A program made the translations under genes and the position numbers. DNA of 64,000 nt, from assembly GCA_030606565.1 (NCBI GenBank), contig JAUWGE010000001.1, positions 87,740 to 151,739 on the forward strand, read 5' to 3'. Position 1 is the stretch's first letter. Every line of letters begins with the position of its first letter. The notes below the pieces were generated by a model. That model was not told where the DNA came from, did not search any database, and was given only the letters and a program-made list of their open reading frames with translations. This DNA comes from Candidatus Bipolaricaulota bacterium. Its GTDB lineage: Bacteria > Bipolaricaulota > Bipolaricaulia > UBA7950 > UBA9294. This document shows, piece after piece, positions 51,204-63,017 of the stretch.

Positions 51204-53771
51204 ATGGCAATTGAAGTCATCAAACGAAGCCTCGACTACCTCTTGGGGCAGACAAACACCCAGCAGCTTAAGCGCTTCCGTTCTCACCTGCGGGCGATAA
51301 ACACATTATCAAAAGAGATGGAACGCCTTTCCGACGTGGCGCTCCAAGCCAAAACAGAGGAATTTCGAAGACGTCTTGAGGCAGGAGAGACAAAGGACAA
51401 AATTCGAAATGAGGCGTTTGCTGTGGTGCGCGAGGTCGCTGTGCGCACTGTACAGATGCGACCATTCGACGTACAGATCATAGGGGCAATTGCCCTCGAT
51501 GAACAGAAGATCGCGGAGATGCAAACCGGGGAGGGGAAAACCCTTGTTGCCACCCTCCCCGCCTACCTGAACGCACTGGTGGGGAAGGTGCACGTGGTAA
51601 CCGTGAATGATTACCTCGCCCGCCGCGACCGGGAGTGGATGGGCCCGATCTACGAGTTCCTCGGCCTGTCTGTCGGCCTCCTTCAGGAGGGGATGGAGAC
51701 CGAGGAGAGAAAATCCGCCTACGCTGCCAATATCACCTATGGAACGAACAACCAGTTCGGGTTCGACTACCTGCGTGATAACATGGTTCTCTCCACCGAC
51801 CAAAAAGTCCAGGGACCTCTCGACTACGCGATAGTTGACGAGATCGATAACATCTTGATCGACGAGGCACGCACCCCGCTCATCATCTCCGGTTCCACCG
51901 CCCAGTCAATCGACCGCTACCGCAAGTTCGCGTCGCTTGTCCGCCGATTCAAGAAGGATGCAGATTTCGAGATCGACGAGGAGACACGCCGGCTCACCCT
52001 CACCGACACAGGGATCCACAAGGGCGAGGAGGCTCTGTCTCTTGAGAACCTATTCGCCCCGGAGAACACCGACACCCTCCACCACCTTGAGACGGCACTA
52101 CGCGCGCTGCACTTATTTAAGAAAGAGCATGACTACATCGTTAAGGACGGCCGGGTGATGATCGTTGACGAGTTCACCGGGCGGCTGATGCCCGATCGCC
52201 GCTACTCCGACGGCCTCCATCAGGCGCTTGAGGCGAAAGAGGGAATGATGGTACAGCGCGAGTCGCAGACCCTCGCCCAGATCACACTACAGCACTACTT
52301 CCAGCTCTATAAGAGAATCTGCGGGATGACCGGCACCGCAAAGACCGAGGAGGAGGAGTTCAAGCAAATCTACGCCTTGCCAGTACTCGCCATCCTCACC
52401 AACCGACCGCTCATCCGCGAGGCGAAACCCGACGTGATCTTCCGCACCCGCAAGGCGAAGTTCGAGGCGATGGCCGAGGAAGTGGAAAGACTTCACAAGA
52501 TAGGAAGACCGGTCCTGATCGGGACCAACTCGATCGAGAAATCAGAGCGGCTCGCAGCCTTGTTCAAGGAGCGCGACCTTCCGCACCATGTGTTAAACGC
52601 CAAGTACCACGAGCAGGAGGCGGAGATCATCAAGGAAGCCGGCAAGCCTGGGGCGATTACCGTCGCCACCAACATGGCCGGCCGTGGGACTGACATCAAG
52701 CTCGGCGATGGAGTCGCCGAACTCGGCGGCCTGCATGTCATGGGCGGTCAGCGCCACGAATCCCGCCGGATCGACAACCAGCTCCTCGGCCGCTCGGGGC
52801 GTCAAGGGGATCCCGGCTCCTCCCAGTTTTACCTCTCACTCGAAGACGACCTCTTGCGTATCTTCGGTGGAGACCGGATCGCCTCCGTAATGGATCGATT
52901 GGGAATGGAGGAGGGGCAGGCGATCGAACACGACCTCCTCACCGGTGCTATTCGTCGCGCACAGAAGCGTGTAGAAGGGCGCAACTTCGAGATCCGAAAG
53001 CGTCTCCTTGAATATGACCTCGTCCTTGCTAAGCAGCGCGAGGCGATCTACTCCCTGCGCGATCGGTTCCTCTTACCGCCACGCGATGAAGCGGATTCCC
53101 TTCCCATGGATGGCCTCGATGACTATCTAGGCGAGCTGCTCGAAGAGTACGCTGAGGGGCTTATCGCCGACTACGCCAATGCCTCCCGACCCAAGGAAGA
53201 ATGGAACTTAAAGGGGTTGACCCACGAACTCTCAGCTGCCATTCCCGTCTCGCCACAGACCCTGGAGGGGAAGGGACCTGATGAGCTCCACAGCGAAGTG
53301 GTCGATTGCCTCCATCGCGCCCTCTCCCGGCAGAAGGAGCAGCTCGGCGCGCGCTTCCCCCTAATCGCACGGTATCTCATTCTCACTACCGTCGATGAGG
53401 CCTGGCTTTCCCACCTCTACACCCTCGATGACCTGAAGGAGGGGATCGGATGGACCGCCTACGGGGGAACTGACCCGCTCGTCGCCTTCAAGCGTGAGTC
53501 GTTCGCGCTCTTTCAGGAAATGCTCGCCCGCGCGGCGCAAAAGATCGTCCGCTCTCTCATCAATCCACGTCTCGCTGCTCCGGGAGGGGCACGGCAGCCA
53601 ACCCCTACTCAAGAGGTGAGCTACGTCCACGCACCTGCGGGATCGGTGAGTACAACAGCGACAAAACCGAAGCGAAACCCTGTCGTGGCTGTTAAAAAGC
53701 CCGGCCGTAACGATCCCTGTCCCTGTGGATCGGGGAAGAAGTACAAAAAGTGCTGCGGCCGGAATGCTTAG
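51204..53771 (+). CDS. secA: Preprotein translocase ATPase SecA
   Basis: MQTGEGKT, DEID, TNMAGRGTDI, SEC-C motif CPCGSGKKYKKCC. Confidence 0.98.
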   Translation: MAIEVIKRSLDYLLGQTNTQQLKRFRSHLRAINTLSKEMERLSDVALQAKTEEFRRRLEAGETKDKIRNEAFAVVREVAVRTVQMRPFDVQIIGAIALDEQKIAEMQTGEGKTLVATLPAYLNALVGKVHVVTVNDYLARRDREWMGPIYEFLGLSVGLLQEGMETEERKSAYAANITYGTNNQFGFDYLRDNMVLSTDQKVQGPLDYAIVDEIDNILIDEARTPLIISGSTAQSIDRYRKFASLVRRFKKDADFEIDEETRRLTLTDTGIHKGEEALSLENLFAPENTDTLHHLETALRALHLFKKEHDYIVKDGRVMIVDEFTGRLMPDRRYSDGLHQALEAKEGMMVQRESQTLAQITLQHYFQLYKRICGMTGTAKTEEEEFKQIYALPVLAILTNRPLIREAKPDVIFRTRKAKFEAMAEEVERLHKIGRPVLIGTNSIEKSERLAALFKERDLPHHVLNAKYHEQEAEIIKEAGKPGAITVATNMAGRGTDIKLGDGVAELGGLHVMGGQRHESRRIDNQLLGRSGRQGDPGSSQFYLSLEDDLLRIFGGDRIASVMDRLGMEEGQAIEHDLLTGAIRRAQKRVEGRNFEIRKRLLEYDLVLAKQREAIYSLRDRFLLPPRDEADSLPMDGLDDYLGELLEEYAEGLIADYANASRPKEEWNLKGLTHELSAAIPVSPQTLEGKGPDELHSEVVDCLHRALSRQKEQLGARFPLIARYLILTTVDEAWLSHLYTLDDLKEGIGWTAYGGTDPLVAFKRESFALFQEMLARAAQKIVRSLINPRLAAPGGARQPTPTQEVSYVHAPAGSVSTTATKPKRNPVVAVKKPGRNDPCPCGSGKKYKKCCGRNA

Positions 53772-53983
53772 GAGATCCGTTCCAACAGGAGCTCGTCGTC
53801 TGTGACGAAGAGCCTGATCAACTCGAAAACTTCCGTATCTTGCTTCTCCTGCCCTGACAGCTCGTAGGTGATCTCCCTCTTACGCATCATCACTAACCGG
53901 TTTCCCAGAGCGATCGCCTGCTCCATGTTGTAGGTAACCATGATCGTGGTGAGATTCCTTGGTTCCACAAACTCAAGCGTCAA
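53768..53983 (-). pseudogene. C-terminal remnant of an ABC ATPase (COG1101-like)
   Basis: LTTIMVTYNMEQAIALGNRLVMM (H-loop His replaced by Tyr); no Walker A or B. Confidence 0.6.
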
Positions 53984-54121
53984 GCGCCAGAGACGATTAA
54001 GGTTCCACTTTCCTTAAAGACCTTCGCCAGGGCGGGCGATCTGATCGAGGAGACAAACCCGCGTCTCTTGAGGGCCCACTTCAACACTCCCTCCTTTGTG
54101 CTGCTTCAGGTGACTTAGTCC

Positions 54122-54150
54122 TTGACAGCTTCAGACGATTCTGTTAGGAT
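54122..54150 (+). promoter_or_regulatory. Sigma70-type promoter of the leader-livGFHM operon
   Basis: TTGACA-N17-TAGGAT with TG extension. Confidence 0.75.
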
Positions 54151-54168
54151 GCGTCTATAGGAGGAAAG

Positions 54169-54249
54169 ATGCGACAGGCTTCTATCCTGGAGGTGCGAAC
54201 GGCTAGCGATACTTTTAATTGCTACTTTATGATTCATTGGGCTAACTAG
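54169..54249 (+). CDS. Putative attenuator leader peptide MRQASILEVRTASDTFNCYFMIHWAN
   Basis: AGGAGG RBS, ATG; stop codon inside an 11-bp hairpin; terminator follows. Confidence 0.7.
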   Translation: MRQASILEVRTASDTFNCYFMIHWAN

Positions 54250-54278
54250 TAGCGCCTGAGAGGCGCTACTAGACCCGC

Positions 54279-54313
54279 AAACCGAAAGCCGAAAGGCTTG
54301 CGGTTTTTTCTTT
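54279..54313 (+). terminator. Attenuator terminator upstream of livG
   Basis: aaaccg-a-aagcc GAAA ggctt-g-cggttt followed by a T tract. Confidence 0.75.
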
Positions 54314-54336
54314 GCCTGCAACGTGAGGAGGAAAGA

Positions 54337-55110
54337 GTGCTTGTTGTCGAAGACCTTGCCAAGCAGTTTGGTGGGCTACACGCTGTGGACAGTTGTTCGT
54401 TCACGGTAAAGCGAGGTACGATCACCGGGCTGATCGGGCCGAATGGAGCAGGCAAGACTACAGTGTTCAATCTCCTCACCGGTTTTCTCAAACCCGATAG
54501 CGGCGAGGTTCACCGTGCGGAGGAGAACATCACAGGCCTACCACCCCATCGCGTCTTCCGCCAGGGAATTTGTAGAACCTTCCAGATTCCGCGTGAATTG
54601 AAGGAGATGACGGTTGTGGAAAACCTGATGCTCGTACCCTCCGGACAGCTCGGCGAAAGGATGTGGAACCCATTCTTTCGGCCACGGAGGGTGCGTCAGC
54701 AGGAGCGTACGATCTGTGATAAGGCGTTTGAAGTCCTGGACTTCTTGCAGCTTTCCCATCTAAAAGACGAGTATGCGGGGAGCCTCTCCGGCGGCCAGAA
54801 GAAGCTCCTGGAACTGGCTCGAACCATGATGGTCGACCCCAGAGTGGTCCTGCTCGATGAACCCGGTGCGGGAGTAAACCGCACCCTTTTAAAACGCCTA
54901 GCCAGTTCCATTGAACGGTTGTGCAGAGAGACGGGGACAACCTTCCTCATTGTCGAACACGATATGGACTTTATCATGAGACTCTGCACCCCGGTGATCG
55001 TGATGAGCGAAGGGCGCAAATTGATGGAGGGAACTCCCGCAGAGGTCCAGCAAGACCAACAGGTACTCGACGCCTACCTCGGGGGACAGTATGTCGCTAT
55101 TGACGGGTGA
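54337..55110 (+). CDS. livG: HAAT/branched-chain amino acid ABC ATP-binding protein
   Basis: GPNGAGKTT, RTFQ, LSGGQ, EHDM. Confidence 0.9.
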   Translation: MLVVEDLAKQFGGLHAVDSCSFTVKRGTITGLIGPNGAGKTTVFNLLTGFLKPDSGEVHRAEENITGLPPHRVFRQGICRTFQIPRELKEMTVVENLMLVPSGQLGERMWNPFFRPRRVRQQERTICDKAFEVLDFLQLSHLKDEYAGSLSGGQKKLLELARTMMVDPRVVLLDEPGAGVNRTLLKRLASSIERLCRETGTTFLIVEHDMDFIMRLCTPVIVMSEGRKLMEGTPAEVQQDQQVLDAYLGGQYVAIDG

Positions 55111-55795
55111 GGGGATCCATAGTGGTTACGGAGATATGGAGGTCCTTCACGACGTCTCCTTCCGCATAGAGGAGAAAGAGATCATCTCGATCATTGGTCC
55201 AAACGGGGCCGGAAAGTCGACCCTGTTGAAAACAATCTTCGGGTTGCTCAAACCCACAAAGGGAAGTGTCACCTTTAAGGAAAACAGTATCACTGGGCTG
55301 GCGCCTGATCGAATCGTCCGCTTGGGTATGGCCTATGTTCCCCAAGTGGAGAACGTCTTCCCCTCACTCACCGCCCAGGAGAATCTGGAGATGGGCGCCT
55401 TTATCCGCAAAGATGATTTCAGCGACCGATTGGAAGAGGTCTATGAACTCTTCCCCCTCCTCAAGGAGCGGCGGCGGCAGCGGGTAGGGAAGATGAGTGG
55501 GGGCGAACGGCAGATGGTAGCGATGGGCCGAGCACTGATGCTCGACCCGGAGTTGCTCATGTTAGACGAACCCTCCGCTGCTTTGGCGCCGAAGTTGGCG
55601 GAGATGATCTTTGAAAGAATCACCGCGATCAACGAGACCGGCGTTTCGATCCTCATTGTGGAACAGAACGCCAAGGAATCCTTGAAGCTGGCTGACCGGG
55701 GGTACGTTCTGGCCAGTGGACAGAACCGCTTCGAAGATACAGGTGAGAACCTGTTGGCCAACGAGGAGATCGGGCAGCTCTACCTGGGCGGGTAG
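55091..55795 (+). CDS. livF: HAAT ABC ATP-binding protein
   Basis: GPNGAGKST, MSGGERQM, VEQNA, YLGG. Confidence 0.9.
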   Translation: MSLLTGEGIHSGYGDMEVLHDVSFRIEEKEIISIIGPNGAGKSTLLKTIFGLLKPTKGSVTFKENSITGLAPDRIVRLGMAYVPQVENVFPSLTAQENLEMGAFIRKDDFSDRLEEVYELFPLLKERRRQRVGKMSGGERQMVAMGRALMLDPELLMLDEPSAALAPKLAEMIFERITAINETGVSILIVEQNAKESLKLADRGYVLASGQNRFEDTGENLLANEEIGQLYLGG

Positions 55796-55804
55796 AGGAA
55801 ACAA

Positions 55805-56728
55805 ATGCAGATACTATCAAGAATTCCACAGTTGCTTATATACGGTGTCATCTCAGGGAGTATCCTTTCCCTGGGAGGGATTGGCGTCTCCCTCACCTAC
55901 AGCATCCTGGGTTTCGCCAACTTCGCTCATGGTGATTTCATGGCCCTTGGCGCATACATCGCCCTTGGACTATTTACTCTAACCGCTGGACTGGGAATTC
56001 CCAGTACTCCTCTTGGTCCACTCTCCTTCGGATTCGGTTTCATCCTCTCCTTTATTCTAGCTATGGGGCTGACTGCCTTGACGGTAGTCCTGATCGACCG
56101 GTTCCTCTTTAAACGGTTGCGGCACACTAGCTCGATCATTCTGATGATGTCTTCAATTGGAGTCGCATTGGGCCTACGGAACGTCCTTCAATTCTTCTGG
56201 GGGCCGCAGCCGCACTACTACATAGAGAAGATACAACTGGCTATCGTGATCCCTGGGGTAGGCGTTAGGATCAAGCCCGACCAGGTGTTTATCATTATCG
56301 CCGCTATAGTATCGGTCGGATTGGTCCACTACTTTTTGCAACATACCAAGATGGGTAAGGCGATGCGTGCTACTGCGGATAATATGGCGCTTGCCCGAGT
56401 AACGGGTATCAATACGGAACGGGTGATCCTTTGGACATGGGTGATTGGCGCTGCCTTAGCAGCAACGGCAGGGATCCTCGCCGGGATTGAGAACAAGTTC
56501 ATCACCCCGGAGTTAGGGTGGCAGATGCTCCTGTCTATCTTTGCCTCCGTCGTCCTGGGTGGACTTGGCAACCCTTACGGGGCGATCCTTGGAGGGATGA
56601 TCATCGGCCTTTCCGAAGAGGTCTCAACCGCGTTCATATCCACCGGGTATAAACCGGCTGTGGCCTTCATCATCATGATCATCATGTTGCTGATCAAGCC
56701 AACCGGACTGCTAGGGAAGAGGCGATAA
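55805..56728 (+). CDS. livH: HAAT ABC permease
   Basis: NFAHG, GKAMRA, KPTGLLG. Confidence 0.9.
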   Translation: MQILSRIPQLLIYGVISGSILSLGGIGVSLTYSILGFANFAHGDFMALGAYIALGLFTLTAGLGIPSTPLGPLSFGFGFILSFILAMGLTALTVVLIDRFLFKRLRHTSSIILMMSSIGVALGLRNVLQFFWGPQPHYYIEKIQLAIVIPGVGVRIKPDQVFIIIAAIVSVGLVHYFLQHTKMGKAMRATADNMALARVTGINTERVILWTWVIGAALAATAGILAGIENKFITPELGWQMLLSIFASVVLGGLGNPYGAILGGMIIGLSEEVSTAFISTGYKPAVAFIIMIIMLLIKPTGLLGKRR

Positions 56729-57759
56729 TGGACACGATTGTCGGAATAATAAACTACATCGTCTTCTTCGCTATCACTGCTGGCACCTACGGAATCCTTT
56801 CCCTGGGCTTAAACATCCAGTGGGGGTATACCGGCCTATTCAACATCGGGATCGCTGGATTCTACGCGGTGGGCGCATATACAGCGGCCCTGGTCTCTGG
56901 CCCGCCGCCTGGCGCATGGGATGGTCGCATCTTCGGGGGGTTTGAGCTCCCCTTCCTCGTTGGGCTGCTGGCGGCGGCCGTCGTCTGTGGGATCGTCGCC
57001 CTATTAGTCGGCATTCCCACTCTGCGCCTCAGAGCGGATTACCTCGCGATCGCCACCATCGGGATAGCTGAGACGATCCGACTGGTGCTAAAGAACGAGT
57101 CCTGGCTCACCAATGGTGTGTGGGGCCTGCAGCAGATCCCTTCCCCATTGTATGATCCAATCCGCGCAGGGGTCACGAGATTCCTGGGTGGGCACCCTGA
57201 CCTGCCGCCATGGTTACACGATCTGATCTTTAAGTCGTATAACTGGTTTTATCTCCTTTTAGTTCTGGGCATCCTCTTTATCCTCTATCTCATCATGCAG
57301 CGTCTCGTGCGCTCCCCCTGGGGACGCGCGGTAAAGGCCATCCGCGAAGATGAGGATGCCGCTGCGATGTCAGGTAAGAACACCTTCTCCTTCAAGATAC
57401 AGGCCCTCGTGCTAGGCGCGATGATCATGGGGATCGGCGGGAGCCTCTACGCCCACTACGCCAGGTTTATCTCTCCCGCCTCGTTCAAACCCCTCTACGG
57501 GACCTTTCTTGTCTGGGTGATGTTGGTCCTGGGAGGAAGCGGGAACAACAAAGGCGCCATCCTCGGTAGCTTTGTCGTATGGGGGATCTGGGCGGGGACC
57601 GACTTTTTGACCGGCTACTTCCCCTTTACCGCCACACAGGCAGCTTCTCTTCGAATTATCATTATTGCAGTATTGCTGGAAGTCATTCTACTATGGCGCC
57701 CGCAGGGGCTGTTACAGCGAGAAAAGCGCCCCCCAACGATCCTCAAGAAAAAGGCGTGA
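56728..57759 (+). CDS. livM: HAAT ABC permease
   Basis: GYTGLFN, LRADYLAIAT, AIREDE. Confidence 0.9.
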   Translation: MDTIVGIINYIVFFAITAGTYGILSLGLNIQWGYTGLFNIGIAGFYAVGAYTAALVSGPPPGAWDGRIFGGFELPFLVGLLAAAVVCGIVALLVGIPTLRLRADYLAIATIGIAETIRLVLKNESWLTNGVWGLQQIPSPLYDPIRAGVTRFLGGHPDLPPWLHDLIFKSYNWFYLLLVLGILFILYLIMQRLVRSPWGRAVKAIREDEDAAAMSGKNTFSFKIQALVLGAMIMGIGGSLYAHYARFISPASFKPLYGTFLVWVMLVLGGSGNNKGAILGSFVVWGIWAGTDFLTGYFPFTATQAASLRIIIIAVLLEVILLWRPQGLLQREKRPPTILKKKA

Positions 57760-57762
57760 AAA

Positions 57763-57793
57763 ACGGGGGGCGGCCCGATAAGGTCACCCCCCG
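57763..57793. terminator. Probable terminator hairpin between convergent livM and the binding-protein gene
   Basis: cggggggcggcc...ggtcacccccg. Confidence 0.55.
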
Positions 57794-57854
57794 GGAACAG
57801 GAGAGACGAAGGTATCTCCCTCCTGCAATCTGTCTTACCCTTGGTCTTCTCTAG

Positions 57855-59066
57855 TTATCCAGAAGTCTCCATGAGATCAATGACCTTACACCCTTCGATT
57901 TTCCAGATCAGGATTTTTCCCAGAACATCCCCGGTGTCTGTAAAATCTACTACTCCAGAGACGCCCTGGTAGTTGATCTCTTTTCCTTGTTTTAGGAGTG
58001 AAACCGCCTTGTCCCACTCACCGTAGAAGACCTCCACTCCGGGAGAATTGGCAACAGCACGCAGGTTGTCGCGAATCGCTGGACCTGTAGCCTCCCCTGC
58101 TCTGACCATGGCGAGAGCGATCAGCATGACCGCATCGTACGCCTGGAAGTTGTAAGGGACAGCGCTAGGACCAAACGCGGCGTTGAAATCAGCGGAGAAC
58201 TCATCCGCTCTAAACCCAGCGGCCGCTACTGTGCCGTATGCCCCCTCAATGGGGCCGGTGCCTTCCGCCTCGTTGCATCCCGGGCCGGATGCAACTGCTT
58301 CTCCCTTCATCCCGTCGGAGAAGAAGAAATCACCCTGGTAGCCGGCCTCAACCGCTTCCACAATCTGTTTGTTCCCATCCACCGGGTAACTGATCATGAC
58401 GATCGCATCGGGATCCCCGGCTATGAGCTTGTCCACCTCACCCCGGTAAGAGGGCTTGTTTTCCTCGTAGGGGACCATCGCCAATACCTGGCCACCGTAC
58501 TCCTCAAACGTGTCTTTAAGGGTGTCTGCTAGGCCTTTGCCATAATCGTTGTTCACGTATATGACGGAAATCGTCTTGTAGTTAAGAAGCAGGACCATCC
58601 GGGCCATAACCACGCCTTGTATGTCATCGGGGACAACCGTCCTGAATACGTAGTCGTTGTCGTCCAAGGCAGAGACCGAAGCGGCTGATGAGGCGGGTGA
58701 AATCAAGACCACCTCAGCGGGGATGGTCACGCTGGAACACGCTACGGTAACGCCACTGGAGAGGGCTCCCATGATTGCCGGGACCTTATCGAGTTCCACC
58801 AGTTTACTGGCGGCATCGCGCCCGACATCGGGGGAGGTCGCTGTATCCCGTACTACTAACCCCAGTTGCGTGCCTAATACTCCGCCCGCGGCGTTGATCT
58901 GATCAACGGCCAACTGAGCGCCGTCCACAATCGGAGGACCAAACGGGCCTAGACCTCCGGTCAGCGCCATCAGGGCACCGATCTTAATCGTCTCCGCCGC
59001 AGTGGCGGTGATCGCCAATCCCAAAACTAGCCCAACTACCAACAGACAAACTGAAACTCGTCGCAT
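57855..59066 (-). CDS. HAAT-family (LivK-like) substrate-binding protein
   Basis: Signal peptide, INAAGGVLG, GALSSG, NNDYG, AYDA. Confidence 0.9.
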   Translation of the reverse strand: MRRVSVCLLVVGLVLGLAITATAAETIKIGALMALTGGLGPFGPPIVDGAQLAVDQINAAGGVLGTQLGLVVRDTATSPDVGRDAASKLVELDKVPAIMGALSSGVTVACSSVTIPAEVVLISPASSAASVSALDDNDYVFRTVVPDDIQGVVMARMVLLLNYKTISVIYVNNDYGKGLADTLKDTFEEYGGQVLAMVPYEENKPSYRGEVDKLIAGDPDAIVMISYPVDGNKQIVEAVEAGYQGDFFFSDGMKGEAVASGPGCNEAEGTGPIEGAYGTVAAAGFRADEFSADFNAAFGPSAVPYNFQAYDAVMLIALAMVRAGEATGPAIRDNLRAVANSPGVEVFYGEWDKAVSLLKQGKEINYQGVSGVVDFTDTGDVLGKILIWKIEGCKVIDLMETSG

Positions 59067-59164
59067 GTTAACCTCCCTGAATATTTATGTGCCTACCTAT
59101 ACAGTCTCTAGCAGTCTCTTCGGAACGCTCACCTCCTTTCTCGACCTAGCGGATAAGGCCACCC

Positions 59165-59196
59165 AAAAATAAAGACCACAGGCATTGCCTGTAGTC
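59165..59196 (-). terminator. Attenuator terminator upstream of the LivK-like gene
   Basis: gactacaggc-aat-gcctgtggtc-tttattttt on the minus strand. Confidence 0.75.
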
Positions 59197-59230
59197 GTCT
59201 TCCTGCCTTATCTTGAGCTTTACCTATTGT

Positions 59231-59341
59231 TTAGGTTAGCTCAAACAAGGCAGGCATCCACAGAATAAAATAATGAACGACGTAAAGGGAACCGGTAACT
59301 ACGCCTTCAGTCTCTCTTCGATACCCTTTTGCCGTGTTCAT
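59231..59341 (-). CDS. Putative attenuator leader peptide MNTAKGYRRETEGVVTGSLYVVHYFILWMPALFELT
   Basis: ATG 10 nt after the -10 box; stop codon inside long hairpin 59202-59254; terminator follows. Confidence 0.65.
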   Translation of the reverse strand: MNTAKGYRRETEGVVTGSLYVVHYFILWMPALFELT

Positions 59342-59351
59342 AGTTATCCCC

Positions 59352-59380
59352 ACTATAGCATGTATCCGCCACGCTGTCAA
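59352..59380 (-). promoter_or_regulatory. Sigma70-type promoter
   Basis: TTGACA-N17-TATAGT with TG extension. Confidence 0.75.
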
Positions 59381-59413
59381 GAGCAACACCTGCGTCCGTC
59401 AAGAGATCGTTTA

Positions 59414-60061
59414 TTACAAGCCAGGAACGTGAGCTCTATTCTCCAAAGACCGCAGGAGGCGATTGGCGATCGTGACCAGACCCAAGTAGAGCAACCCAAC
59501 GACCAGGAACACCTCAAAGAAGCGGAACGTCTCGTAGGCGATCAACCGCCCCTGGCCTGTCAGGTCAACGAGGGTGACAAGGTAGGCGAGCGAGGAATAC
59601 TTAATGAGGTACACGATCTCGTTGGAGCAGGCGGGAAGAGCCTTTCGTAACATTTGGGGGAGGATGATCGACAGAACAGCCTGAAGCCTTCCCATGCCCA
59701 AGGCGCGTGCGGCTTCCAACTGCCCACTTTTTATGGAGAGGATCGCACCGCGAAAGTACTCGGAGTGGTAGGCCCCGCTGCATAGGCTGAACGCGACGAT
59801 GGCGGAGACAAACGGACTGAGCACAAGACCGAAGCGCGGAAGGCCGTAATAGATGATAAAAAGCTGCACCAACAGCGGTGTCCCCCGGAAGAGCGCCTGG
59901 TACACCCAAGCCAGAGACGACAGTAGAAGCCCGCCATAACTTCGCCCCAGCGCAACCGTGATCCCGATCGCAAGGCCAATGGGTACTGAACAGACGATGA
60001 GTTGGAGCGTGATGGACATCCCTTGAAATAGGCGAGGAAGCGCCCCTGCGAGGAAGCTCAT
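59414..60061 (-). CDS. Polar amino acid ABC permease
   Basis: FRGTPLLVQLF, GQLEAARALG. Confidence 0.92.
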   Translation of the reverse strand: MSFLAGALPRLFQGMSITLQLIVCSVPIGLAIGITVALGRSYGGLLLSSLAWVYQALFRGTPLLVQLFIIYYGLPRFGLVLSPFVSAIVAFSLCSGAYHSEYFRGAILSIKSGQLEAARALGMGRLQAVLSIILPQMLRKALPACSNEIVYLIKYSSLAYLVTLVDLTGQGRLIAYETFRFFEVFLVVGLLYLGLVTIANRLLRSLENRAHVPGL

Positions 60062-60753
60062 CGACTGCTCTCCTTCGCACGATCTCCAAGGCCGGGGATG
60101 CGAGTGCGTCGCTCCATTACCCAGAAGACTAAGACGCCAAGATAGGTAAGGACGAGGTAGATAGCGGCCACAGTCAGGTAGATCGTCATCGTGGCGTAAG
60201 TTCGCGCAACGATGAACTTGCCCCTGCTCAGTAGCTCAACAACGCCGACAGCAAATGCCAACGCAGTATCTTTGAGGACGATGGAATACTCATTGGCAAG
60301 CCCTGGAAGTGAGAAGTGAAGAGCCTGAGGGAGGAGCACCAACCAGATTGCTTGAGGTTTGCTCATTCCCAGGGACCGGGCTGCCGCCATTTGACCCTCT
60401 CCCACTGCTAACAGGCTGCCACGGTAGATCTGGGATTGATAAGCGGCGCTGCGCAGCCCCAGCGCCAAGACCACGGCGAGGAAGGGAGAGAGGGAGACCC
60501 CTTCGATGCTTCCCAACCCGAAATAGAACAAGAACAGAAGAACGAGGGCGGGAAACCCCCGGAATATCCTGTCATATATGGCAGCGACCCATTTGCACCA
60601 GCGTGTGCCATACACGTGGACGAGTGCTAAGGGAACCCCGAGAAGAAAGCCGACTCCCAGACAGGTGGCGATCAACGCCATCGTGATGTACGCACCCTGA
60701 AGGAGCGTGGGCAAGGAGCGCACGATCAAGTTCAAGCTGTCTGTGAAACTCAT
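60058..60753 (-). CDS. Polar amino acid ABC permease
   Basis: FRGFP, GQMAAARSLG, LKDTAL. Confidence 0.92.
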   Translation of the reverse strand: MSFTDSLNLIVRSLPTLLQGAYITMALIATCLGVGFLLGVPLALVHVYGTRWCKWVAAIYDRIFRGFPALVLLFLFYFGLGSIEGVSLSPFLAVVLALGLRSAAYQSQIYRGSLLAVGEGQMAAARSLGMSKPQAIWLVLLPQALHFSLPGLANEYSIVLKDTALAFAVGVVELLSRGKFIVARTYATMTIYLTVAAIYLVLTYLGVLVFWVMERRTRIPGLGDRAKESSR

Positions 60754-60805
60754 GCCTTGATGGAGGAAGAGAGGGGAGCTCTGCTCCCCTCTCTCCTTAT
60801 AGGGC

Positions 60806-61591
60806 TTAGTCTCCGATGAGCCACTTCTCTACAAGACGGTCCCATTCGTCGCTTGCCTTGATGCGTTTGAGACCCTCGTTTAACAGGGAAAGCAGCTCGT
60901 CATCGCCTTTACGGACCGCGTAACCGTAGATTTCACCGGTGTTGATCGTCCCCACGATCGTTGCATCCCGGCCAGCTATGGCGGAGCGTGCGGTCGGCTC
61001 GTCCATGACCGCGGCGTCGACACGGCCTATCAGGAGATCCTCTACCGCGAGCAGGAAGCTGTCGTAAAGCTTGAGCTTGACAGCAACGCCTTCGTCTACG
61101 AGGTTCTCCTCGATCCAGGTCTGTGAGGTCGTCCCCCGCTGCACGCCGATGGTCCTGCCAGCGGCGATGGCCGAGAAGATGTTGAACTGAGGAAAGGGCT
61201 CTCCCTCTTCATCTACCTCTTCCCGCACGATTACAGCAAGGTCGATCGACCAGTAGGGATCGGTGAAATCGACCTGTTCTAGACGCTTTTGGGTGATGGT
61301 CATCCCCGAGGCGATCATGTCGATATTCCCAATCTTCAAGGTGGGAATGATCGCGTCCCAATCGATAGGAACGATCTTTACCTCAAAGTCCATCTCACCC
61401 GCGATCCACTGGACCACCTCCACGTCGAAGCCAGCCGGGTCTCCATTCTCGTCGATGTAGGAGAAGGGCGGGAACGCAGCATCGATACCGTCGACATAGA
61501 GAGGTTTCTCGCCTGCCACAGAAAGAAGAGCGAAGCTCGTCAACAACAGACAAAGTGCAACAGCAAACCGCACAGAAACTCGTACAAACAT
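60806..61591 (-). CDS. Polar amino acid ABC substrate-binding protein (SBP family 3)
   Basis: FPPF, GFDVE, SGMTIT..R, GVQRGTT. Confidence 0.92.
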   Translation of the reverse strand: MFVRVSVRFAVALCLLLTSFALLSVAGEKPLYVDGIDAAFPPFSYIDENGDPAGFDVEVVQWIAGEMDFEVKIVPIDWDAIIPTLKIGNIDMIASGMTITQKRLEQVDFTDPYWSIDLAVIVREEVDEEGEPFPQFNIFSAIAAGRTIGVQRGTTSQTWIEENLVDEGVAVKLKLYDSFLLAVEDLLIGRVDAAVMDEPTARSAIAGRDATIVGTINTGEIYGYAVRKGDDELLSLLNEGLKRIKASDEWDRLVEKWLIGD

Positions 61592-61894: not shown

Positions 61895-61950
61895 TTGACA
61901 ACAAAGGTCGGAGGGGCTATCATTTAGCAAACACCATTGGAGAGTGCTAA
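61895..61950 (+). promoter_or_regulatory. hrcA promoter and CIRCE operator
   Basis: TTGACA-N17-TATCAT, then TTAGCAAAC-N9-GAGTGCTAA (61924-61950). Confidence 0.9.
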
Positions 61951-61958
61951 GAGCCAGA

Positions 61959-63017
61959 ATGACCCTTCCAGAAAGACAAAGGCTTATCTTGAAAGAGATC
62001 GTCGACCGCTACATCCGGCGGCGCGAGCCCGTCTCCTCGAGGATGATCCTCGATGATTACGGGTTACTTGTCAGTTCCGCCACCGTACGCAACGACATGA
62101 ACGATTTGGAAGCAGCCGGATACATCGAGAAACCGTACGCCTCCTCCGGACGGATCCCGACCAAGAAGGGATATCGCTTCTTCGTCGACTGGCTCCTCGA
62201 CCTCTCCGAACTGACAAAGAAAGAACGCCTAGAAGTGGTAGAGGCTTACGGGGTGCGCTGCCTGGAAGTGGGAGAGGCGATGCGCCAGACAGCTTTCCTG
62301 TTGGGGAACATCACCGGCTACGCAGGGTTCGTCATTCCACCTCGCTTGGAGGAGACCCGCCTCGACCAAATAGTCCTGATAAGAATGGACCCACGGATGG
62401 TCCTTCTGGTAATCGTCTCTGATATCGGCGTCGTCGAACACAAACTGATCCCGCTCGAAAAGGATCTCTCCGCGGAAGAGATCAATCGGATGACACAGTT
62501 AATCAACGACACCCTGTGTGGGGTAAGCCTCGACGCGGTGCGAGAACTGACGCTTGAAGATGGACCGGAAGGATGGTATGAGCCACCTGTGCGCCAGGCG
62601 CTATCAGTCTTGCGCCACATCCTAGAGCGACGGACCCGTCAGTGCCTTTACTTCGAGGGAATTTTGAACCTCGCTGATAGCTTGCAGGAGGTGGCCCCTG
62701 CTCGTGCGATGGAGCGTTTCGCCAGCTTGATCCACGCTGTGCAAGACGAGCGCGCATTTACCGAGGCAATCCGAACAATCCGTGGGGACAGAGAAGGAGT
62801 AATGGCCGCAGTTAGCAGCTGTCCGCTCCCTGGCCTAGAGGAGTACAGCGTGGTAACCTCCGACTATCGTCCGCATTCCGGGGTACTCGGTGTGATCGCT
62901 CCCCTATGGATGGACTATGGCAAGGCGCTCTCGACGACAAGCTACATTGCAAACCGCTTGGAGGCACTCCTTGTTGGCTCCTGCAAGGCAGGCTTGAGGG
63001 GACAAGATGGTGGATAA
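61959..63017 (+). CDS. hrcA: Heat-inducible transcription repressor HrcA
   Basis: SSATVRNDM, SSGRIPT.KGYR; CIRCE upstream. Confidence 0.95.
   Translation: MTLPERQRLILKEIVDRYIRRREPVSSRMILDDYGLLVSSATVRNDMNDLEAAGYIEKPYASSGRIPTKKGYRFFVDWLLDLSELTKKERLEVVEAYGVRCLEVGEAMRQTAFLLGNITGYAGFVIPPRLEETRLDQIVLIRMDPRMVLLVIVSDIGVVEHKLIPLEKDLSAEEINRMTQLINDTLCGVSLDAVRELTLEDGPEGWYEPPVRQALSVLRHILERRTRQCLYFEGILNLADSLQEVAPARAMERFASLIHAVQDERAFTEAIRTIRGDREGVMAAVSSCPLPGLEEYSVVTSDYRPHSGVLGVIAPLWMDYGKALSTTSYIANRLEALLVGSCKAGLRGQDGG

Follow-up and report, generated by a model that had tools for sequence, protein, structure and literature searches.

Attenuation by a translated leader peptide is textbook biology and has mostly been described for biosynthetic operons. 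In the multivalent leaders of Escherichia coli, thrL, ilvL and ivbL, a promoter-proximal open reading frame (ORF) with its own Shine-Dalgarno (SD) sequence carries a cluster of codons for several amino acids at its 3' end and is followed by a terminator before the operon. Here we describe a leader of this build in front of the transporter genes livGFHM of a Candidatus Bipolaricaulota bacterium. It occupies positions 54,122 to 54,313 of a stretch of 64,000 nucleotides (nt) that was analysed as a whole and is called the window below (assembly GCA_030606565.1, contig JAUWGE010000001.1, positions 87,740 to 151,739). We consider it likely that this livG leader is a multivalent, ribosome-mediated (leader-peptide) transcription attenuator gating livGFHM. 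Leader-peptide attenuation would thereby be placed in an uncultured candidate phylum and in control of uptake, since both convergent halves of one importer would be governed in this way.

The differences from the E. coli leaders concern both what is sensed and how the RNA is arranged. Leaders of the thrL, ilvL and ivbL kind control biosynthesis and not uptake, contain Thr/Ile or Ile/Leu/Val codons and are proteobacterial, and the stop codon of their ORF is not buried in a hairpin of 15 base pairs (bp). The pheL and trpL leaders resemble the livG leader in having Phe or Trp sensor codons immediately before the first strand of a hairpin and, further on, a GC-rich terminator followed by a U-run, but they respond to a single amino acid, show a clear four-segment exchange and have no internal SD-like motif. 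The livJ and livK genes of E. coli are controlled by Lrp, which is a DNA-binding protein, and no leader peptide is involved.

According to the accessible part of a survey from 2010, Proteobacteria and Actinobacteria were at that time the only known sources of leader peptides, to which it adds cases from Firmicutes (PMC2965389). The actinobacterial ilvB leaders, as far as the available text describes them, comprise an upstream ORF (uORF) rich in hydrophobic codons followed by a terminator, with an antiterminator that is not obvious (PMC1262725), and are in these respects similar to the livG leader, but they precede a biosynthetic operon in a different phylum. Three motifs from a further report, again to the extent of its accessible text, are comparable in part (PMC11109978). 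The Corynebacterium ilvB uORF motif has a P1 antiterminator of its own that is complementary to the terminator, which we do not see here. The Streptococcus fthC uORF motif shares an arrangement of three hairpins, the middle one often containing the uORF stop and the last being an intrinsic terminator, but its sequence is unrelated, no amino-acid-specific codon cluster is described in that text and its authors propose sensing via initiation. The Streptomyces livJ motif regulates the same kind of transporter genes from a 5' leader, but is a structured RNA (riboswitch candidate) without uORF and hence without leader peptide. Our literature search returned no report of a leader peptide for a liv transporter, judged by titles and abstract openings, no publication linking Bipolaricaulota with a leader peptide and, judged by titles, nothing on attenuation in Acetothermia.

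Parts of the livG leader and their conservation

The livG leader is composed of the following parts, in which P1 and T denote its two predicted hairpins:

54122..54150, + strand: sigma-70-type promoter, TTGACA 54122-54127, 17-nt spacer, TG-n-TAGGAT 54145-54150
54160..54165, + strand: SD sequence AGGAGG of the uORF, complementary to the 3' end of the genome's own 16S rRNA (...GAUCACCUCCUUUCU)
54169..54249, + strand: leader uORF MRQASILEVRTASDTFNCYFMIHWAN, ATG 54169, 26 sense codons, stop TAG 54247-54249
54189..54195, + strand: internal SD-like GGAGGTG in the uORF codons L-E-V, perfect complement of the 16S 3' end
54223..54240, + strand: candidate regulatory codons TAC TTT ATG ATT CAT TGG (Y F M I H W), from codon bias
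54238..54277, + strand: hairpin P1 (predicted fold), outer helix UGGG 54238-54241 : CCCG 54274-54277
54279..54309, + strand: intrinsic-terminator-like hairpin T, AAACCG-A-AAGCC GAAA GGCTT-G-CGG 54279-54303, T6 54304-54309, then CTTT

The preliminary description of this DNA, made from the letters alone, had named a promoter, a ribosome-binding site, a 26-codon uORF, an 11-bp hairpin holding the stop codon and a GAAA-loop terminator, and all of these are present where it had placed them. The promoter agrees with the consensus at 10 of 12 positions and ranks second among the promoter-like sites in 53500-60000, and TTGACA/TAGGAT boxes are also found upstream of the leader in the relatives inspected. 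The core of P1 is a perfect 11-bp stem (54246-54256/54262-54272, loop TGAGA) whose 5' arm contains the uORF stop, with a predicted energy of -23.5 kcal/mol. Hairpin T is predicted at -11.4 kcal/mol, its AAA 54279-54281 being able to pair with the first three U of the U-run, and an alternative register (CCGCAA 54275-54280 : TTGCGG 54298-54303) is nearly isoenergetic at -10.7 kcal/mol. The leader as a whole folds better than 200 out of 200 shuffled sequences (z = -2.9). The U-run of T ends 27 nt ahead of livG, which has its own SD sequence (54325-54331) and starts with GTG at 54337.

A second in-frame TAG (54250-54252) lies directly behind the uORF stop. The uORF (54169) and livG (54337) are in the same reading frame, which is open from 54253 into livG so that only the double TAG parts the two; judged on the window alone, this is probably a coincidence. 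Frameshifting or stop read-through that would carry the ribosome past T was considered and rejected, since the stop is doubled and the two other frames of the leader both hit stops ahead of T.

By blastn the leader was already detectable in 8 of 41 relatives. A covariance model (R1) built from these leaders and applied to 74 genomes of the same Bipolaricaulota family detected one copy per genome in 28 of them, which represent 11 of the 18 genera. In a sample of the phylum 23 of 151 genomes contained a match; outside the family only two weak matches were obtained among 96 genomes, both of them leaders composed of uORF, hairpin and terminator that precede a Peripla_BP_6 gene in one case and an ABC_sub_bind gene in the other. 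When species-representative genomes were scanned with a pattern, 16 loci came up, mostly in metagenome-assembled genomes of Candidatus Bipolaricaulota and several in genomes labelled uncultured Thermotogae; the few loci in other phyla are probably chance matches. In each of the 28 leaders found by the model a LivG ortholog (69-100% identity) begins 15-27 nt past the leader, which leaves no room for another promoter, so that any livG transcript must run through T. Seen from the gene, a LivG ortholog (at least 67% identity) is encoded in 35 of the 74 family genomes, 28 of which have the modelled leader; among four of the other seven that were inspected, two have a divergent uORF-P1-T leader (tails ..ALHIVMT and ..ALFIAMT before the stop), one has P1 and T with no start passing the filter, and one has none.

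The uORF is far from absent in relatives: it is open over 21-29 codons in all 28 model matches, and an SD-like tetramer is found 4-15 nt before its start in 26. The two hairpins are retained as well. In an alignment of the 28 leaders, 90.8% of the cells in P1 and T are paired, compared with 81.8% after shuffling (0 of 500 shuffles reach the observed value) and at most 52% when the pairing partner is slid, and all eight modelled P1 pairs show compensatory changes; the alignment was fitted to the model and therefore favours the structure, and single-sequence folds still give P1 in each leader. The helices of T are 96-99% paired across the leaders. P1 has a median length of 15 bp and a median energy of -19 kcal/mol and begins 3-14 nt before the stop, right after the conserved codons, the stop being paired within its 5' arm in 24 of 28 cases. 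It is separated from T by a linker of only 0-7 nt (median 5 nt), and T has about -11 kcal/mol across the leaders.

The two hairpins differ in how they are conserved, the sequence of T (invariant AAACCG...CGGTTT) being far more constant than that of P1. Within the uORF, residues 2-6 and those encoded by the P1 arm (AN, AE, VI, ML, VV, IV, VGS) vary freely, which makes it unlikely that the peptide itself is the selected product. The L-E-V codons are kept in most leaders as GGAGGUG(A), wobble positions included. In the window this internal GGAGGTG is a longer complement of the 16S rRNA than the initiating SD sequence and has no start codon at a usable distance, and an out-of-family leader (L089), which belongs to another operon, contains the motif as well. 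As a guess, ribosomes may pause there, about seven codons ahead of the sensor codons.

Environmental DNA containing this stretch is labelled as cold-seep, sediment and subsurface metagenomes, shares below 0.2 being disregarded. One contig from the metatranscriptome of a close relative covers 53900-55064 and thus includes DNA upstream of the promoter, so it may represent DNA or read-through; the RNA libraries were seen as assembled contigs, which do not show RNA ends or levels and allow no conclusion on expression.

Codon content and a family of sister leaders

Codon statistics were computed over 18 non-redundant leaders with a set of codons (F/Y/W/H/M/I) that was picked after seeing the sequence. 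These codons make up 0.58 of the last 10 positions, compared with 0.13 in the earlier part of the uORF and 0.19 in either of the other frames. In the window's leader 7 of the last 12 codons belong to the set, while the mean over 8009 small ORFs of the same genome (ATG-started, 20-35 codons) is 1.88 and 0.19% of them reach 7, a figure that is generous because of the post hoc choice. For F/Y/W alone the count is 4 of 12 against a mean of 0.85, and 1% of the small ORFs reach 4. The composition singled out in the preliminary description is therefore distinguishable from that of random small ORFs.

By a count by eye, F occurs within the last ten codons of 17 of the 18 leaders, M in 16, I in 15, Y in 14 and W in 13, and conservation within the uORF is highest at TACTTTATG. 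Histidine, which is found in 2 of the 18, is incidental and outside the conserved codon set. The broad set proposed earlier thus holds for F, Y, M, I and W in the 3' part of the uORF, and not for every genus, as some have no Trp and end in ..YFM[LMF]IT[IT]V and others have aliphatic codons together with Met and Thr. The combination of aromatic with Met and Ile codons suggests that aromatic amino acids are also among the substrates of this LIV-type system.

The gene of the substrate-binding protein, livK, which is convergent with livGFHM, is preceded by a leader of its own, and a comparable one is found before the homoserine dehydrogenase (hom) gene elsewhere in the same genome:

59163..59380, - strand: livK sister leader, promoter 59380-59352, uORF 59341-59231 (ending ..LYVVHYFILWMPALFELT before the stop)
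59259-59197, - strand: hairpin of the livK leader with the stop in its upper part, followed by a terminator 59196-59174 and U-run (predicted fold)
Contig C27 of the same genome, about 104050-104300, - strand: hom leader with its own promoter, uORF MTKGHEHKAFRAFSAGLSFDFTVTTSASVSF, stop-holding 13-bp perfect hairpin and livK-type terminator

The livK leader is strongly structured (z = -6.9 against shuffles) and lies about 5 kb from the livG leader on one contig in 10 of the 28 genomes, the contigs being too short in the remainder. Both leaders have a common build, consisting of a uORF, a hairpin that holds its stop, a short purine-rich linker and a terminator, and their uORFs share a Y-F-[IM]-x-W-like tail. 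The two had been regarded as unrelated, a view that this comparison overturns: by sequence, both liv leaders belong to one modular leader family. The Y/F/M/I/H/W set that they were said to have in common survives as the same kind of codons in both, with His dropping out for the reason given above.

The livK-type terminator module (GACUACAGGC-loop-GCCUGUGGUC-U-run, window 59201-59163, - strand) is present in 37 of the 74 family genomes with up to 4 copies each. Its copies (L053-L082) always form the final hairpin of a leader, and the loop of many contains ATG. The livG-type terminator is found before the ABC_sub_bind gene of another family (L089). Terminator modules thus seem, from these occurrences, to have been exchanged between leaders.

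The tails of the uORFs change with the gene that follows. In our genome the uORF of the hom leader ends in ..FDFTVTTSASVSF and contains Thr codons (..TVTTS..), and the homoserine dehydrogenase leaders of relatives end in ..YTTFVSAFS. Leaders before the CM_1 (aroH-type) chorismate mutase gene of relatives have Phe/Tyr tails (..ALALFFFYFTY, ..VFFWYYFGAGLSASA and ..SFSYYFER), and the motif ..FFWYYF.. is also found among them. Those of ABC_sub_bind binding proteins contain Trp, Tyr and Phe codons (..RSSRWYWFS..), and the Peripla_BP_6 leaders have mixed Y/F/I/L/W/M tails. The best argument for sensing via tRNA charging is that the codon set tracks the controlled gene, and the codon set of each leader would then be a free prediction of the purpose of the transporter or enzyme behind it. 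The uORFs and terminators of these leaders should not be annotated as small hypothetical genes or as operon ends.

Between the terminator of the livK leader and the start of livK, at about 59160-59105 on the - strand, there is a conserved stretch (GGCCTTATCC…GGTCGAGAAAGGAGGTGAG) with a strong SD sequence about 60 nt before the true SD of livK. It is also present in L054, L059 and L060 and may represent either another small ORF or a structural element. A generic scan of the own genome for leaders composed of uORF and terminator was set aside as noisy, as it missed the known livK and hom leaders.

From a stalled ribosome to livGFHM: proposed mechanism and alternatives

If the livG leader is an attenuator, transcription would start about 7 nt past TAGGAT, and a ribosome would load at AGGAGG/ATG and translate the 26 codons, the last ten of which specify mostly Tyr, Phe, Met, Ile and Trp. 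With charged tRNAs plentiful it would enter P1, meet the double stop and leave, whereupon P1 and the adjacent T would fold and most transcripts would end at the U-run short of livG. With one or more of these tRNAs poorly charged, the ribosome would instead stall on TAC-TTT-ATG(-ATT-CAT-TGG) with its front edge on the foot of P1, T would fail and livGFHM would be transcribed. Since livK is preceded by a comparable leader, the same amino acids would control both parts of the importer. We infer the termination at T, its relief by stalling and the route between the two from the order of the parts. The leader has a short ORF with a ribosome-binding site, a cluster of related codons near the 3' end of this ORF and, by prediction, an intrinsic terminator before livG; an antiterminator that forms only upon a stall at the regulatory codons was not found. 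The proposal that the two convergently transcribed halves carry the same sensing logic consequently stands in so far as both have codon-biased leaders, and falls short in that the searches of the window's leader brought up no ribosome-dependent antiterminator.

The search for such an antiterminator relied on a masking test, in which the RNA is truncated ahead of the 3' arm of T, the footprint of the ribosome is masked codon by codon and the pairing probability of the 5' arm of T is read. Five leaders of E. coli K-12 served as controls, and the test recovered them all, with pairing probabilities of 0.73-1.0 at the regulatory codons against 0.01-0.39 in the free RNA (masked/free: thrL 1.0/0.39, leuL 0.73-0.83/0.34, trpL 0.75-0.91/0.01, hisL 0.8/0.31, pheL 0.88/0.31), thrL behaving as expected. 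Being thermodynamic, the test does not exclude kinetic or steric mechanisms.

A number of results weigh against attenuation at the livG leader. In the masking test the window's leader gave a flat profile, with 0.55 in the free RNA and 0.5 (Y), 0.5 (F), 0.7 (M), 0.6 (I), 0.6 (H), 0.4 (W) and 0.5 (stop) under the mask. None of the 28 leaders had the classical pattern at Y-F-M; in a few leaders of one genus the probability increased, but not before the final two or three codons. When the 5' arm of T is allowed to pair with the preceding 45 nt, the energy gained is -1.2 kcal/mol in the window (median -1.9, n = 28), whereas it is -5.5 to -13.2 kcal/mol in four of the five E. coli controls, with the strong 2:3 antiterminator of thrL at -13.2 and leuL at -0.1. 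In 9 of 16 leaders with the livK-type terminator, masking of the regulatory codons frees the terminator arm, which is opposite in sign to the classical behaviour; the naked RNA of these nine pairs the regulatory codons with the linker and the terminator arm. Two loci deviate in their composition: one uORF (L024, genome G049) stops early, TAG replacing a Trp codon (MALHTNETLSRRHVARYFHFIMW), in an otherwise intact leader, and the LivG ortholog at L117 is without any leader. The flat masking profile, the weak upstream pairing and the opposite sign make the link from stall to read-through the weak step of the attenuation model. The absence of a classical antiterminator also makes the transduction of the stall a testable question, for which a family with two terminator modules in at least five gene contexts is a natural comparative set.

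A smaller rearrangement is feasible in 16 of the 28 leaders, where the 3' foot of P1 (CGG, UGG or CUGG) can leave its 5' foot (UGGG or, in the Trp-less genus, CCA) and pair with CCG, the first bases of the T stem. Such a rearrangement would amount to the classical 1:2 / 2:3 / 3:4 exchange on a scale of 3-4 bp. The distance from TACTTTATG to UGGG is fixed at 6 nt, so that a ribosome stalled on Y/F/M has its front edge on the foot of P1, which would fit such a foot swap. Here too there are points on the other side: the swap is impossible in the window's leader and in that of its congener, which have C and not G, the freed CCGCAA of the window's leader gives only the second terminator-like register, and a 3-bp foot match is weak evidence among related sequences.

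Other routes were examined and set aside. Whole-leader equilibrium folds with a masked ribosome, in which T stays formed in most leaders, were dropped as evidence because this method detects only 2 of the 5 E. coli attenuators. A column-pair scan of the 28-sequence alignment for further helices gave GAGGUG:UACUUU, CUUU:AAAG and purines with the U-run, all G-U-rich or of 4 bp and unconvincing. GGCU-like stretches upstream that pair with the 5' arm of T in truncated folds differ in position from leader to leader and are not conserved. A ribosome resting at the stop codon and covering the terminator, which is the pyrBI/pyrE mode, was rejected since the start of T, 32 nt beyond the stop, is out of reach.

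The alternative that survives best, although we regard it as unlikely, is attenuation that works without any RNA antiterminator. P1 would then act as a bridge that keeps the stalled ribosome beside T and RNA polymerase: with P1 looped out, only the 0-7-nt linker would remain between ribosome and T, resulting in a steric block as in a collided or NusG-coupled expressome, while an unstalled ribosome would melt P1, stop inside it and leave, so that T folds freely. A hairpin-bridged steric block is, to our knowledge, without precedent, no search for one having been made. Such a bridge would agree with the lack of a ribosome-dependent alternative pairing in a test that recovers all E. coli controls, with a geometry that is kept while the sequence of P1 varies, and with the use of the same build with two unrelated terminator modules. 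It is also supported by an in vivo series in which, as far as the accessible text reports, a ribosome near a terminator represses termination and the effect falls with distance (PMC4824070). The geometry does not discriminate, however, as classical designs need short spacing too, the foot swap of 3-4 bp, weak as it is, offers a conventional alternative in 16 of 28 leaders, and the contact between ribosome and polymerase is an assumption of the model. A broader proposal, which we hold to be doubtful, is that of a class of antiterminator-free attenuators in which P1 would be the bridge and the internal SD motif a timing pause, and whose chassis would have been reused with exchangeable terminators for at least five Bipolaricaulota operons.

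Less probable still is control of P1 and T by a factor acting in trans (an RNA-binding protein, a small RNA or a tRNA), or a T that is constitutive at a fixed low level, with the uORF being accessory (e.g. for RNA stability) or an independent small gene. The conservation of T, which far exceeds that of P1 as if T were recognised, speaks in its favour, as do terminator modules common to unrelated operons and the negative outcome of the masking and upstream-pairing tests. Yet Rfam 15, with the T-box, amino-acid leaders and riboswitches included, gave no match to the leader in the region 53500-60000 at E-values up to 10, the two listed matches being off the leader and at chance level. The uORF frame (28/28), its SD sequence (26/28) and the position of the stop in the hairpin (24/28) are kept, although neither the N- nor the C-terminus of the peptide is conserved as a protein, and neither a trans factor nor a fixed terminator explains why the codon content follows the operon.

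It would take yet more to accept an arrest peptide, such as TnaC and SpeFL, whose product responds, within the ribosomal tunnel, to a free amino acid or another small molecule and stalls at or near the stop; we deem this highly improbable. The motifs (L)EV and YF[MI]..W are indeed kept across genera and the position of the stop within P1 is conserved. But LEV is conserved at the level of nucleotides including the wobble positions, and hence as an RNA motif, YF and the stop are set apart by anything from 3 to 7 residues, the tails are swapped for CVMLIMVV, LHIVMT or IPFIVT in several genera, and those of the sister leaders change with the pathway, as codon sensing predicts. Chance, in the form of an AT-rich spacer with a short ORF beside an ordinary terminator of the upstream gene, draws on small ORFs being as common in this genome as the 8009 used for comparison and can practically be discarded, as the preliminary description had argued on other grounds, in view of the conservation over 11 genera (28 of 74 genomes) with an open uORF and covariation of the hairpin, the codon enrichment matched by so few small ORFs, the leader's own promoter and an upstream gene, secA, that ends 350 nt earlier (at 53771).

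The transporter genes and their surroundings

The genes of the transporter are arranged as follows:

54337-55110, + strand: livG, ATPase (Pfam ABC_tran and BCA_ABC_TP_C)
55091-55795, + strand: livF, ATP-binding cassette (ABC) ATPase (Pfam match)
55805-56728, + strand: livH, BPD_transp_2 permease
56728-57759, + strand: livM, BPD_transp_2 permease
57855..59066, - strand: livK-like substrate-binding protein, convergent with livGFHM (Pfam Peripla_BP_6, 3e-50)

With LivG/LivF-type ATPases, two BPD_transp_2 permeases and a Peripla_BP_6 protein, the locus has the components of an importer of the HAAT family (LIV-type), and livGFHM is best read, from these matches, as half of an ABC importer of this family for hydrophobic amino acids. 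The top NCBIfam models are LivG/F/H/M and the LIV binding protein, every one of them under its equivalog cut-off, and the substrate range is hence unassigned. The solved chains nearest to the livK-like protein, 4gnr and 3td9, are branched-chain or hydrophobic amino-acid binding proteins. A described member of the phylum has, according to the accessible part of its report, limited amino-acid synthesis and relies on imported amino acids (10.1101/207811).

Between secA and the leader promoter, at 53768-54105 on the - strand, stop-interrupted frames resemble the C-terminal part of an ABC-transporter ATPase (…TIMVTYNMEQAIALGNRLVMMRKREITYELSGQEK…) and are, by this resemblance, probably a gene remnant; the same DNA is found in the congener (L002). 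On the other side, beside the livK leader, lies an importer for polar amino acids (59414-61591 on the - strand and 61944-63017 on the + strand), which comprises two BPD_transp_1 permeases and an SBP_bac_3 binding protein and is followed by hrcA.

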